Source of the DNA: an uncultured Candidatus Poseidoniales archaeon
GTDB taxonomy: Archaea > Thermoplasmatota > Poseidoniia > Poseidoniales > Thalassarchaeaceae
Reading direction: 5' to 3'
Length of the DNA: 24,000 bases
NCBI GenBank assembly: GCA_964644485.1
Contig: CAZXVR010000002.1
Span: 1 to 24,000, forward strand
The stretch's first letter is position 1. Each line of letters opens with the position of its first letter. The notes beneath the pieces are model-generated. The model saw only the letters and a list, made by a program, of their open reading frames with translations, was not told the DNA's origin and ran no database searches. A program made the translations under genes and the position numbers. Shown one piece after another: positions 13,471-23,332 of this stretch.

Positions 13471-14232
13471 CTACACCGCTTCGATTAATCTCGAAAATCC
13501 AAAGCTAAATGGGCGACCATCTAGTAATTCTCGCCAATGATGAATTTCAAGGCGAAAGCCGTGACCATCATGCGAGAGAACAACCTCTTCACAATTCAGG
13601 ACTGAGAATGATTGGGGTGCGACATGCATCCCCAGCCCACAAGCCTTCTGTGTCGCCTCCTTGACGACCCACGTGCGAGTCGCTTCTTGCATGCCCATCC
13701 CTGAATCAATATCCCACAATTGCTCTAGATACTGGAGCTCTTCACCAGAGGTCATCATCGTCAACAGGTTCCTCGCGCGGGGAACGCCGAGAGGCTCGGC
13801 ATCTATTCCAATCGAACTTCCATTGAGAGACACTGCAGCAATCGACACGCCATTTGAATGGCCAAGTGTAATCTCTGGCAACTGTGGACTCAGAGGGCCG
13901 CCTGCACGAATTCTGGCTTCGGCGTTTTTCCATACCAAGCTGGGCTTTCGATGCTCATCGCGTACGATTTGAAGATCAAAAGGGTCGAAGCCAATATCTC
14001 TGAGGAGGGTGGCCAGAGCGTAACGAGCGGATGCATGCTCATGCGCGCGTTTCGCTGTGACAAAGGTCGAGGCCTCAAACGCATCAACCAATGGCACATT
14101 GGTCAATACCGGAATCGGATCGTCAGGGCGGTGGTTGGCAACTGGCATCCATACTGCAATCACCTCATCCACCCCACAAGCATCGGGTAAAGGAAGAGGC
14201 GATACCAAACCGAAAGGGCTCCACAATTCCAT
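13471..14232 (-). CDS. 4'-phosphopantetheinyl transferase, Sfp type
   Basis: 253 aa, the two-domain Sfp size. Motifs are ...IGIDAEP... (GxDxE) and ...TWVVKEATQKACG... (W-x-x-KE-A-x-x-K). The RBS is GAGG with a 7-nt spacer before ATG 14232. It lies 37 nt downstream of the megasynthase. Confidence 0.88.
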   Translation of the reverse strand: MELWSPFGLVSPLPLPDACGVDEVIAVWMPVANHRPDDPIPVLTNVPLVDAFEASTFVTAKRAHEHASARYALATLLRDIGFDPFDLQIVRDEHRKPSLVWKNAEARIRAGGPLSPQLPEITLGHSNGVSIAAVSLNGSSIGIDAEPLGVPRARNLLTMMTSGEELQYLEQLWDIDSGMGMQEATRTWVVKEATQKACGLGMHVAPQSFSVLNCEEVVLSHDGHGFRLEIHHWRELLDGRPFSFGFSRLIEAV

Positions 14233-14269
14233 GATAATTCCTCAATTGGAAAATTGATTTTTCAATTGA

Positions 14270-17200
14270 TTATTTCCCCTTTCTTTTTAGCGTGAATCTC
14301 AACTTTTCTGGGACCGGAGCCATACCCTTTAGCCTGAGCCCTTTGATTGAGACAATCGGTTTCTGATTTCGATCGAACACCATGGCATCGTGAACTGTAA
14401 TTCCATTTTCTTCTTGGCTCCGGCGATAACTCCTGACCCGGAGGTCATCGCGAATTGCGGGTACTTTGAGTAATTCACACTCATCGATTCCTACCGGTAG
14501 GCTCGAAATCCCATCGATTTCCATTGCTACTAAACCTGCATTTTGGAAACAGGCCTCTATGAGCATCGGTAGTGATTCCAATAGTGCGGGCTCGTCATCA
14601 AACAATTTGGATTCGGGCAACTGATTGCGTAAGAGGGCAATCCCATCAGCTCCGAAATCGGCGCCATCTGACACCCCTTTGACCAAGCCACCATGAACTT
14701 GGAATCGTGGCCCATGGAAGAATCGATCATAAATGAAATTGGGCTGGAACGAGGCTTTGCCCCTTCCTGGTGAACTGGTGAATGCCACCTCTACATCTCG
14801 TTTCGCCCCCTCCTTCAACAAACGGACAATGCCCTCGTGATGGATACGAGGTTCACCGAATATTTCTCCTTTAGAATTGACCAAATCGCTCTCTATACGG
14901 CATTTGATGAACAAGGAATTTTGGTCTTGATCACTGTATTCGGCCTTCACACGTACACGTATTTCTTCCTTCATCAGTTTGATTGGGAGTCCAAATTTAA
15001 CTTCCGAAAATCCTTGAAGGATACACATTGGATACAGTAGGAGGGCATTTTGTGCAAACATTTCCATCGCCATCACCCCCGGATGATAGGGAGTCCCATC
15101 GATTGAGTGATCTGTTAGGAATGGGAATCTATCAGTCGAGAGGGTGCACTCTGTCAATATTTCAGAATATAGGTCATGATTCAGTATTCGATCCACAAAT
15201 GGGAACCGTTCCGGTTCTGAAAGGGCACCTGCTGTATCTGCCGGAAGTTTTTGTGGAGGGCCTCGTTTGCAATCTTCATTGTCCAATATTCCCAATGCGC
15301 CCGCAGCCACTACGCGGCGTTTGCCTCCACCTAGCATCTCTTTGACGAAAATTTCGACGCCTGATTCAACTGGAATCGTTTCGATGCCGGCTTGCATGAA
15401 CACGGATTCCAATGAGCCACGAGTTGCCATTCCAACATCGCGCCAGCCAGACCAAGCGATGGCGACTGCTCTGGGAGCAGCTTCGTGGTGAGCGATTCGG
15501 CACATCTCTGCATCCAGAATGTTGTTGGCGGCGGCATAATCGACTTGGCCACCGTTTCCAAATCTTCCCGCCACAGAAGTAAATGCGCACAGAACTCGTA
15601 ATTGATCCAGTTCGTCTCCTAATGCATCGATTAGCGCCCTCCAGCCATCGATTTTTACAGAGATAATATTCGCAAATGTTTGCCATGACTTGTCTGGAAC
15701 CAACTTTGAATCCTCAAGTCCAGCCCCATGAACGATTCCGGTGATGGAGCCACATTCTTTCCTGACAGCAGCTAGGACTTTGGCGACAGATTTGGAATTT
15801 GTAACATCACACGCATCATACAGCGCTCGGTTACCAGAAGATTGGATGTCCCGCATGGTTCTGTGAATCTCTAAACTGCGCATTTGTTGATTCCAGACTT
15901 GTTCCCATTCGACCATGGTGACTTTTCCAGATTCACTATTCGCAACCATTTCTTCTCGCAAATTCATCTTTCGTTCTTGCAATGTTGATTCATCGTCCTG
16001 TAACCATTCTTCTATACTGGCATCAAGTCGTGTTCTTCCAAGTAAGACAAATGTTGCACCAACATCCCTGCTTTGTTCAGCCACACCAACAACGCAGCGT
16101 GCGGTGACACCTGCGCCACCACCAGAAATAACCCATACATCGTCCGCTTGAAGCGGTTGAATTTCACCGACAATATCTTCCTCATACAAACGAAGAGCCC
16201 AACGGCTGCCATCACGTGAAAGCCCTACTTCCAGGGGAGTGGTTCGACCGAATGCTTCCGCCCAAATTTGGTGGGCGAGAGCGGTTGGGTCAGCGAGTAA
16301 TTCTGGATCAATGTCTACTGCCCTGCATCGCAAATGAGGCTTCTCTTTGGCATAGGATTTGATGATGCCATGGGATCCTGCTGCGAGTGCATTGAAACGG
16401 CTGCTAGCATTACCGTGGCGACCATCCATGGCGCTAACAGACATCACAGTACCATCTTCAATCGAACTGAATTGGGGATCAAGGGATTTCAGTAACCCGA
16501 ACAACCCATGTGTAGTGGATGTGAGTTGCGCCTCTTGGGTCTGAGTTTCCCAGCCCACGCCTGCAAGTCGAAGTGGAGACAAGTGGAGCAGGGCCACCAC
16601 ATCCCCGACCTTTGCGAGGTGAGCGCTGACTTCAGCAAGTTGCTCATGATTGCCAGGATCTACGCGGACAATATCGACTGGACCATCTTTCTCAATTTTG
16701 ATCTTTGAAACAATACTCGGATCAAGCATGATTCGAACCGTATCAATTCCTGCGGCCTCCAAGATATGACAAAGGGTATCTGCAACCCCCCAAGGGTCAT
16801 CTGTTACGGCAACCACCTTGCCATCAATATCCAAAGGAGTGGTTGCTTCAGGGGGTGCTTCTTCGACTTCGACCTGCCATCTCCGAACCCCAATTGTTTC
16901 GTTTTCGAATGTGGTGACGTCTGGCTCTGGTTGTAGTTCCAAAGGCTGGACGGGATCTACTGCTGTGGTTTCGACCTCCCCTTGGCCAAGATAAGCGATC
17001 ATGTGATTCAAAGTCGGGTGTTCACTTAGCACAAAGGACTCGTCCACGGGCAAGCCATAGAAATCTCTGAGTTCAGCCATGATTTCTGCTTGCTTTACCG
17101 TGTCAATGCCAAGTTCACCTTCGAGATCCTGATCCAGTTCGATGAAATCTTCAGGATAACCCGTGTGTTTGACGACGACTTCAACCACCTTGTTGGAAAC

Positions 17201-22531: not shown

Positions 22532-22540
22532 TTTCTCGCC

Positions 22541-23332
22541 TCAGTCACTGATGCTATCGGGTACCATCGTGCTAGAAAAACCAGCATCGACGTGAATGAT
22601 TTGTCCGGTCACGCCGGAACCGAGCGGGCTGGAGAGCCAAACCGCACAGCCTGCAACATCGTCTTGATTCACGTTGCGTCGAAGTGGAGAATTGCGTTCC
22701 ACATGATTCAGAATGTCATCGAACCCCGGAATACCACTCGCAGCCAAAGTTCGGATTGGGCCTGAAGAAATCGCATTGACGCGATGCCCATCTTCACCGA
22801 CTCGCATGGCCAATTCACGAACCCATGCTTCCAATGCAGCCTTAGCGATACTCATGACACCGTAGTTTGGAACATAGCGAGTACTAGCGGCATAAGTCAG
22901 GGTGATGGTGGATGAATTTGGAGCGAGATGGGGTAATGCATGACGCATGATTCGTTGTAATGAATGTGCAGAAATTGTCATCGCAGTATTGAGGGGTTCA
23001 TCTTCCACGAACAGCATGTGACGATCAAAACATTCTCGCGGTGCAAACCCAATGGCATGGATGACGATATCTGCCTTGGCACCCGGCGACACCTTTTGCC
23101 ACTCATGGAAAAATTCAGCAGTGGTCTCCTCAGCACCTACATCGATTGGATAGAAGGCTTCAATGGCCTCGAGTTTGTCCTTCAGTTGGAATACTCGGCT
23201 CATGAATCTCTTCTGATATCCTAGAATCAGTTTGCAACCAGCCTCTGCCAATCGATTGCAAATTGCCCAGGCGATGGAATCCTCGGAGGCGACTCCAAAC
23301 ACCAGTGCTGTCTTCCCTTCAAGTTGCAACAT
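22541..23332 (-). CDS. fabI: Enoyl-[acyl-carrier-protein] reductase, FabI type (SDR)
   Basis: MLQLEGKTALVFGVASEDSIAWAICNRLAEAGCKLILGY..., the catalytic Y-x6-K region YGVMSIAKAALEAWVRELA, and ...NAISSGPIRTLAASGI.... ATG 23332 is preferred (the track start 23341 is GTG). Its stop TGA (22543-22541) lies 9 nt before the megasynthase start. Confidence 0.92.
   Translation of the reverse strand: MLQLEGKTALVFGVASEDSIAWAICNRLAEAGCKLILGYQKRFMSRVFQLKDKLEAIEAFYPIDVGAEETTAEFFHEWQKVSPGAKADIVIHAIGFAPRECFDRHMLFVEDEPLNTAMTISAHSLQRIMRHALPHLAPNSSTITLTYAASTRYVPNYGVMSIAKAALEAWVRELAMRVGEDGHRVNAISSGPIRTLAASGIPGFDDILNHVERNSPLRRNVNQDDVAGCAVWLSSPLGSGVTGQIIHVDAGFSSTMVPDSISD

Follow-up and report, generated by a model that had tools for sequence, protein, structure and literature searches.

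The window analysed here is a stretch of 24,000 nucleotides (nt; positions 1 to 24,000 of contig CAZXVR010000002.1, assembly GCA_964644485.1) from an uncultured Candidatus Poseidoniales archaeon of the family Thalassarchaeaceae, and its GC content was 0.45–0.54. On its minus strand lie three co-directional genes, separated by intergenic gaps of 9 and 37 nt, which encode a FabI-type enoyl-ACP reductase, a type I megasynthase of 2,753 amino acids (aa), and an Sfp-type 4′-phosphopantetheinyl transferase (PPTase). The megasynthase belongs, in split form, to a large PfaA-related family that is still uncharacterised; the locus is fixed in Marine Group II (MGII), the most abundant planktonic archaea, and the two working carrier domains predicted for its megasynthase carry threonine at the position of the attachment serine. 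The three genes were located as follows.

22541..23341, minus strand: FabI-type enoyl-ACP reductase, the trans-acting enoyl reductase (ER) of the set, 266 aa from a GTG start (PF13561; PDB 1ulu)
14270..22531, minus strand: type I megasynthase with the domain order KS1-AT-ψACP-KS2-ACP-ACP-KR-DH, 2753 aa from a TTG start (Pfam)
13471..14232, minus strand: Sfp-type 4′-phosphopantetheinyl transferase, 253 aa (PF01648, E 1e-8)

Catalytic domains of the megasynthase and FabI

Pfam assigned a ketosynthase (KS) at residues 13–476 of the megasynthase, an acyltransferase (AT) at 628–854, a second ketoacyl-synt domain at 1198–1410, two PP-binding domains, a ketoreductase (KR) at 2224–2365, and the PKS_DH_N and PS-DH models of a dehydratase (DH) at 2456–2735. 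With profile alignments and motifs added, the domains occupied the following positions.

21104..22495, minus strand: KS1, polyketide synthase (PKS)/PfaA-type ketosynthase, residues 13–476 (PF00109/PF02801/PF16197; C220/H354/H393)
19742..20650, minus strand: malonyl-type AT, residues 628 to about 930 (PF00698, E 2e-31; TIGR00128 FabD, 200 bits)
19247..19501, minus strand: ψACP, degenerate carrier-like domain, residues 1011–1095 (hhalign; attachment hydroxyl absent)
17786..19180, minus strand: KS2, divergent FabF-like ketosynthase, residues 1118–1582 (PF00109, E 9e-16; triad C1326/H1474/H1514)
17297..17530, minus strand: carrier domain 1, residues 1668–1745, with Thr1704 in ELGIDTVKQAEI (PF00550)
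16976..17209, minus strand: carrier domain 2, residues 1775–1852, with Thr1811 (motif as in copy 1)
15272..16879, minus strand: KR, structural and catalytic halves, residues about 1885–2420 (PF08659, E 8e-25)
14312..15205, minus strand: PKS-type (double hot-dog) DH, residues 2443–2740 (PF21089 and PF14765)

KS1 contained the motif DAAC220AS and matched the KS-AT portion of a modular PKS in the PDB (E 1e-123), while the AT showed GHS726LGE and HAFH828, motifs that are characteristic of malonyl-type acyltransferases. The divergent KS2 aligned best with the FabF structure 4ddo (E 3e-24), with the cysteine, both histidines, and the lysine in register and the active-site motif reading NNAC1326AS. 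Because Cys1326 and both histidines are all kept, KS2 is not a chain-length factor (CLF) and is predicted to be an active condensing enzyme. The KR carried SGGGAG, the LED motif of the B-type, and Tyr2332, and the DH carried the catalytic motif H2475xxxGxxxxP.

FabI matched PF13561 over its full length (E 7e-67), and its best match in the PDB was FabI of T. thermophilus (1ulu; E 1e-54, residues 5–256). The Tyr/Tyr/Lys residues of E. coli FabI were kept, with the Tyr-x6-Lys pair in NYGVMSIAK; the NCBIfam FabI models scored at most 225 bits, below their equivalog cut-off of 391. Translation from an ATG at 23332 yields a protein beginning MLQLEGK, in agreement with the starts of homologues, and this ATG is likely the true start rather than the GTG. 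No thioesterase (TE), reductase, FabA-type DH, or acyltransferase release domain was detected by Pfam in any open reading frame (ORF) of the window. Judging from domains and motifs, all activities for iterative, fully reducing C2 elongation look to be encoded and intact.

Most of this had been anticipated in an earlier note made from the sequence alone. The three packed genes, the set comprising KS, AT (GHSLGE and HAFH), carriers, KR, DH, trans-acting FabI, and PPTase, and the lack of a TE, reductase, or acyltransferase release domain were all recovered by ORF coordinates, Pfam, and motifs. Its description of the carriers stood insofar as two PP-binding domains were found, but it had overlooked the most unusual feature of the locus, an attachment site with threonine rather than serine.

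Carrier domains and phosphopantetheinyl transferase

Both carrier domains matched PF00550 (E 7e-20) and read ELGIDTVKQAEI, in which threonine (GIDTVK) occupies the place of the expected phosphopantetheine serine. Thr1704 and Thr1811 aligned on the modified serine of B. subtilis ACP, S. aureus ACP, and PigH. In an AlphaFold2 model, the carrier formed a four-helix bundle (helices 2–16, 37–51, 57–60, and 67–77) with the threonine at residue 37, the first residue of helix II, which is the standard place of the attachment residue. The fold and the helix II position are thus those of a carrier protein, while the serine acceptor of PF00550 and PROSITE PS00012, a pattern that demands serine, is absent.

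The substitution recurred throughout the family. The motif read LGIDTVK 280 times and LGIDSIK twice in 120 MGII homologues, and the site was threonine in 409 and serine in 16 cases (approximately 96% threonine) among 150 representatives of the wider family. The codons of the two residues are one substitution apart. One serine-type protein, a JGI metagenome protein of 1886 aa with LGVDSVK carriers (P0121), nested inside MGIIb in the tree and provides a natural exchange of the two residues for comparison. A fused PPTase was found in only three serine-type proteins; P0152, from a Ca. Heimdallarchaeota genome, combines a fused PPTase with serine-type carriers. We know of no precedent for carriers with threonine in place of serine, and neither such carriers nor the motif was found in the literature searched, which is not proof that they are undescribed. 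The site accepts only hydroxyl residues and strongly prefers threonine, the neighbouring ψACP drifts freely, and many members of the family have a PPTase of their own, either fused or encoded next door, which together argue for threonine as the site of modification; Thr1704 and Thr1811 are apparently the phosphopantetheine attachment residues.

The two carrier copies were identical at 221 of 240 nt (92%), and homologues contained between one and four copies. Short-read assemblies may collapse the carrier copy number, and gene conversion between the repeats may occur.

The region between the AT and KS2 (residues 1011–1095) had no match in Pfam and was recognised by hhalign against the profile of the first carrier (probability 89%, E 2e-6). 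Its attachment column in MGII homologues was occupied by P, D, E, or A, and bacterial relatives had a normal ACP at this position. The identity between MGIIb and MGIIa was 12–19% for ψACP and the linkers, compared with 50–72% for the catalytic domains and carriers, a difference that indicates purifying selection on every catalytic domain. By these patterns, ψACP is a decayed carrier, and the megasynthase is left with two predicted working carriers rather than three.

The PPTase sequence had no match in a search of the PDB. Its AlphaFold model, built with 18 homologues, had a pLDDT of 93.3, and Foldseek retrieved human AASDHPPT (1.6e-9), Sfp (3.7e-8), and also PptT and PcpS. In total, 28 Sfp-type chains were matched at E-values of 1.6e-9 to 4e-5, whereas AcpS-type chains covered half the length only; the model thus places the protein among Sfp-type (group II) PPTases with a pseudo-dimeric, two-lobe fold. 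The gene was next to the synthase in all MGII loci examined, and an identical PPTase occurred on five public contigs. A hidden Markov model of the MGII PPTase matched a fused C-terminal domain in 39 of the 150 family representatives, and the separate MGII gene is therefore regarded as the split form of this domain.

Distribution, neighbourhood, and origin of the synthase

The megasynthase had more than 100 full-length homologues (52–84% identity) on contigs of up to 1.16 Mb, labelled at NCBI as metagenome-assembled genomes (MAGs) of Marine Group II, Thalassarchaeaceae, Poseidoniaceae, and Poseidoniales. When GTDB species were scanned, with a single genome for each, 33 loci were obtained, of which 31 were titled archaeal MAGs (mostly Poseidoniales/MGII), one was a distant KS match in Pseudomonas, and one was labelled Verrucomicrobiales. 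When all window proteins were searched by tblastn, the order TatD-FabI-synthase-PPTase was found in both MGIIb and MGIIa, with synthase identities to the window protein of 72–93 and 51–55%, respectively. The locus was matched most closely by an MGIIb-P MAG (92–98%). No other protein encoded in the block was as well conserved as FabI, with identities of 91–98% in MGIIb and 71% in MGIIa; that it surpasses even PCNA suggests that its role is on a par with housekeeping functions.

In more than 10 independent MGIIb assemblies, the gene order was TatD-FabI-synthase-PPTase-ABC-FGE-like-GT2-PCNA-TFS-Nop5-fibrillarin-Fpg-MIP. Between the cluster and the remaining window sequence, relative synonymous codon usage correlated at r 0.81–0.86, compared with only 0.71 between the housekeeping and other genes, and the tetranucleotide usage of the cluster correlated at r 0.93 (internal controls, 0.83–0.89). 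The synteny across assemblies and the native composition exclude both chimerism and a recent transfer, and the FabI-synthase-PPTase set is an old, vertically inherited core trait of Poseidoniales.

The locus labelled Verrucomicrobiales (L032; NZEQ01000014.1, "Verrucomicrobiales bacterium ARS100") consisted of an MGIIa FabI-synthase-PPTase set with a CDP-archaeol synthase. As the latter was 98.6% identical to its counterpart on a Poseidonia sp. contig (L024), the contig is almost certainly archaeal and was placed in the wrong bin. CDP-archaeol synthase was considered as a member of the system and was not counted in, since Poseidonia (L024/L032) alone has it close to the cluster.

For the wider family, residues 1001–1880 (ψACP-KS2-ACP-ACP) were searched against 1.84 billion cluster representatives. 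The search recovered 1002 representatives at E<1e-30. Of these, the best 150 (all E<1e-142) were mostly megasynthases of 2,000–4,000 aa with the architecture KS-AT-(ACP)-KS2-ACPn-KR-DH, at times with a fused ER and PPTase. In a simple motif screen of these 150, approximately one-third had a C-terminal PPTase and one-tenth an N-terminal ER of the NMO/PfaD type; Pfam detected both a fused NMO-type ER and a PPTase on P0141 and on P0161, the latter from a Thermoplasmatota archaeon. The MGII locus shows the features of the family, namely full-length homology that includes a FabF-like KS2 followed by GIDTVK carriers, together with a fused or adjacent Sfp-type PPTase. Bacterial members were found in Polyangiaceae, Bradymonadaceae, other Myxococcota, Chloroflexota, Actinomycetota (including the cultured Nostocoides australiense and Kibdelosporangium lantanae), Acidobacteria, Gemmatimonadetes, and Gammaproteobacteria, and archaeal members beyond MGII in Heimdallarchaeota, Halobacteriales, and other Thermoplasmatota. 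No release domain was detected by Pfam in these relatives either.

A horizontal origin is likely because the synthase family is mainly bacterial. In a rough, unbootstrapped neighbour-joining tree of KS2, which is indicative only, MGII formed one clade beside Myxococcota-type sequences, while the Heimdall (P0152) and other Thermoplasmatota (P0161) sequences were placed elsewhere; this topology supports one old transfer from bacteria to MGII and separate transfers into other archaea. In the history that we propose, a single import of a single-chain ER-KS-AT-ACP-KS2-ACPn-KR-DH-PPT synthase would have preceded the split of MGIIa and MGIIb. Within MGII, the FabK/PfaD-type ER would then have been swapped for FabI, the PPTase split off, and the first ACP decayed.

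The neighbouring features were as follows; for PCNA/TFS and Nop5/fibrillarin, the coordinates are longest-ORF calls, which overlap by 20 and 98 nt, respectively.

13207..13470, plus strand: small hydrophobic ORF of 87 aa, convergent on the PPTase stop, conserved in MGIIb
13128..13200, minus strand: tRNA-Gly(TCC) (ARAGORN; Rfam, 66 bits)
11204..13105, minus strand: MsbA-like ABC exporter (PF00664 and PF00005; TIGR02203, 405 bits, under the cut-off)
8446-9291: PCNA
8115-8465: TFS
7028-8104: Nop5
6355-7125: fibrillarin

The 87-aa ORF has two hydrophobic segments and no prior annotation, and its amino acid identity across 17 MGIIb loci (55–94%) was higher than that of overlapping or alternative frames; it marks the operon boundary. 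The tRNA-Gly(TCC) gene downstream of the cluster was at the same place in all MGIIb loci tested and approximately 3 kb off in Poseidonia, and it could be the trace of an old integration site. Since these two features sit between the PPTase and the exporter, the exporter is not plainly part of the same operon; it was beside the cluster in MGIIb only and was absent from the vicinity in the majority of MGIIa loci, which leaves it with a weak tie to the pathway. A gene for an FGE-sulfatase-like protein with a hydrophobic C-terminus (10399-11217, minus strand) overlaps the exporter gene by 14 nt and accompanies it in all MGIIb loci; overlapping and travelling together, the two probably form one transcription unit.

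On the other side of the cluster, the spacer upstream of FabI (window 23342-23419) is rich in GC and contains a pair of short hairpins (GAGGGGCACCCTC; CAGCCCGAAGGGCTG); a clear TATA box was not seen in the 78–87 nt upstream of FabI. TatD is kept upstream of FabI in both MGII families, and co-transcription of the two is possible. Among the housekeeping genes, family alignments started at residue 47 of fibrillarin and residue 35 of PCNA, and the real starts are probably internal. Further along the window, a radical SAM protein (2409-3911, minus strand) scored 270 bits with the tetraether lipid synthase Tes (cut-off 450) and 306 bits with TrsS (cut-off 490), and its gene overlaps by 4 nt that of an Lgt-like membrane protein of the prolipoprotein diacylglyceryl transferase family (3908-4648, minus strand). 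The two may be a lipid-modifying pair, with a bearing on the question of whether glycerol dialkyl glycerol tetraethers (GDGTs) are synthesised by MGII. A 364-aa acidic protein (1328-2422, minus strand) had W/D/E-rich internal repeats, terminal hydrophobic segments, and no Pfam match.

Against this background, several proposals of the earlier note can be placed. The archaeal-type nop5-flpA, tfs, and pcna genes that it reported on the same DNA correspond to the block at 6355-9291, its worry about a chimeric contig was dispelled by the gene order repeated in more than 10 MGIIb assemblies, and the search for that order in related archaeal genomes and the comparison of composition with other window genes, both of which it had proposed, gave a set kept in both Poseidoniales families and a native cluster (r 0.81–0.86 and 0.93). 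Horizontal acquisition survives as an old event, likely from a mainly bacterial family, and not as a recent one, given the conservation in both families and the native composition. The architecture is not restricted to the lineage, being the split form of the large KS-AT-(ACP)-KS2-ACPn-KR-DH(-PPT) family. The MsbA-like exporter, which the note had put forward as a candidate partner, has a weak link only, being adjacent in MGIIb alone, with a convergent gene and a tRNA between.

Proposed function and comparison with known systems

From the predicted activities, we consider it reasonably probable that the locus, as part of the core gene set of MGII, encodes a type I synthase of the fatty-acid type that is self-contained and works iteratively with full reduction. 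The PPTase would arm both carriers with phosphopantetheine on Thr1704 and Thr1811, and the AT would load malonyl from malonyl-CoA. KS1 and KS2 would divide elongation between them, probably by chain length, and each β-keto group would pass through the B-type KR, the DH, and the trans-acting FabI, so that the acyl product would be long and saturated, or nearly so. As the megasynthase has no release domain in cis, the chain would be passed in trans to an acyltransferase or a hydrolase from another locus. Beside the MGIIa core, a type III PKS or another partner for release, considered because of a 'resorcinol' biosynthetic gene cluster (BGC) mention, was not present at the locus L007.

A long saturated acyl product would fit the fatty-acid/glycerol-3-phosphate (G3P) lipids proposed for MGII. 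PlsC-like genes and a G3P dehydrogenase are reported for MGII, with no glycerol-1-phosphate dehydrogenase, and intact GDGTs were not found where MGII dominate (PMC6962369). In the literature searched on MGII and Poseidoniales, the synthase was described nowhere beyond automated BGC calls, in which antiSMASH labelled Poseidoniaceae clusters T1PKS/HglE-KS (PMC10434046, retracted), and the large comparative papers on MGII do not mention it, in line with the earlier note's view of an uncharacterised pathway.

Several points weigh against a fatty-acid-type synthase of this kind. Pfam identified no release enzyme in the window, the S36T variant of E. coli ACP is reportedly not modified by AcpS, the KS2 tree behind the proposed origin is rough and unbootstrapped, and a sharing of elongation by KS1 and KS2 is probable only by analogy with the KS pair of polyunsaturated fatty acid (PUFA) synthases, on which it is modelled. 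The tandem ACPs, the PfaA-like KS1, and the HglE-KS/T1PKS calls fit a specialised lipid no less well than bulk fatty acids.

This last point leads to an alternative that we regard as possible though not favoured, in which the same chemistry yields a specialised secondary lipid, made in small amounts and perhaps exported, instead of membrane fatty acids. Candidates include a very long chain hydroxy- or alkenyl lipid, the aglycone of an HglE-type glycolipid, and a hydrocarbon precursor. PfaA is the best family match, tandem ACPs (here in one to four copies) are typical of PUFA- and Hgl-type synthases, there is no TE, MGIIb loci keep an MsbA-like exporter and a GT2 close by, genome mining tagged the Poseidoniaceae clusters T1PKS/HglE-KS (PMC10434046, retracted), and the bacteria with relatives presumably own an ordinary fatty acid synthase (FAS) as well. 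However, the cluster is universal and strictly syntenic in both MGII families, and the conservation of FabI above PCNA suggests a housekeeping-grade role. The exporter, moreover, is unlinked in most MGIIa and separated by the convergent gene and tRNA, and the MGIIa core has no adjoining tailoring genes.

It is considerably less probable that the threonine carriers are never phosphopantetheinylated, so that they would be inactive or otherwise used and the locus would be no canonical ACP-dependent synthase. A universal serine is indeed replaced, the literature searched offered no precedent, and serine-to-threonine mutants of E. coli ACP are reportedly unmodified. Yet hundreds of proteins that diverged long ago have only threonine or serine at the site, the family commonly brings its own PPTase as a fused domain or neighbouring gene, and the catalytic residues and carrier fold are all conserved, whereas the truly decayed ψACP shows a variable site and 12–19% identity. 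An assembly or binning artefact, or a very recent bacterial transfer, as the source of the housekeeping linkage is scarcely credible. Its one point in favour, a related contig labelled Verrucomicrobiales, is explained by misbinning; against it, the block was assembled independently in more than 10 MAGs of different studies and on contigs of up to 1.16 Mb, an identical PPTase lies on 5 contigs, and the composition is native.

MGII are among the most abundant cells of the surface ocean and the commonest archaea there, and no culture of them has been obtained. The nature of their membrane lipids is debated, and a conserved ACP-dependent synthase with its activating enzyme is a concrete, clonable object of 10 kb. 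More speculatively, threonine may be armed by a co-evolved PPTase across the whole family, giving the first natural O-phosphopantetheinyl-threonine carriers, and in MGII the synthase may supply fatty acyl chains of the bacterial type to a mixed or non-canonical archaeal membrane; we regard this combined proposal as tentative. If true, the threonine-carrier family would alter the textbook serine rule of FAS, PKS, and nonribosomal peptide synthetase enzymology and would provide an orthogonal carrier/PPTase pair for engineering.

Among known systems, the best NCBIfam model for the megasynthase was PfaA (TIGR02813), which matched in 3 stretches with 824.6 bits, below its cut-off of 1010.1. Shared with PfaA and PUFA synthases are the order KS-AT-tandem ACP-KR-PKS-type DH, a dedicated Sfp-type PPTase, and two ketosynthases in one iterative system, and the PfaA carrier motif, LGIDSIKRVEIL, closely resembles that of MGII. 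In contrast to Pfa systems, the second KS of MGII is in cis, FabF-like, and without a CLF partner; the locus has neither a FabA-type DH pair nor PfaB; the ER is an SDR-type FabI rather than PfaD/FabK (NMO-fold); and the tandem carriers have threonine (GIDTVK) in place of the serine of LGIDSIK. By its sequence features, the megasynthase is thus placed as PfaA-like without being a member of a Pfa system, as the earlier note had held.

Enediyne PKSs (PKSE; KS-AT-ACP-KR-DH-PPTase) are likewise iterative and PfaA-related, with their own PPTase and no release domain in cis. Unlike the MGII synthase, they lack a second KS, tandem carriers, and an ER and make a polyene, and the enediyne cassette was not present in the MGII window. 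ArsA/ArsD of Azotobacter and the HglE-type enzymes of cyanobacteria are 'secondary lipid' type I FASs, PfaA-like, iterative, and largely reducing, whose long saturated chains go into specialised lipids; they distribute their domains over the proteins in another way, and the MGII core has no adjacent type III PKS or glycolipid genes. With type II FAS, the locus shares a canonical FabI and a KS2 whose nearest solved structure is FabF, but the MGII FabI serves a megasynthase, KS2 is embedded in the chain and approximately 25–30% FabF-like, and no free AcpP, FabD, FabG, or FabZ was found in the window. Animal and fungal type I FASs are marked by an MDR- or FMN-type ER and a TE/MPT release function in cis; the MGII chain has no ER or TE, and its order is KS-AT-ψACP-KS-ACP-ACP-KR-DH.

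The single-chain relatives P0141, P0161, P0165 (Bradymonadaceae), and P0171 (Myxococcota) are full-length homologues with 35–47% identity across ψACP-KS2-ACP. In KS2 type, GIDTVK carriers, KR-DH tail, and possession of a homologous PPTase they agree with the MGII system, which differs from them in its separate FabI of another fold as the ER, its separate PPTase, and the degenerate ACP before KS2.

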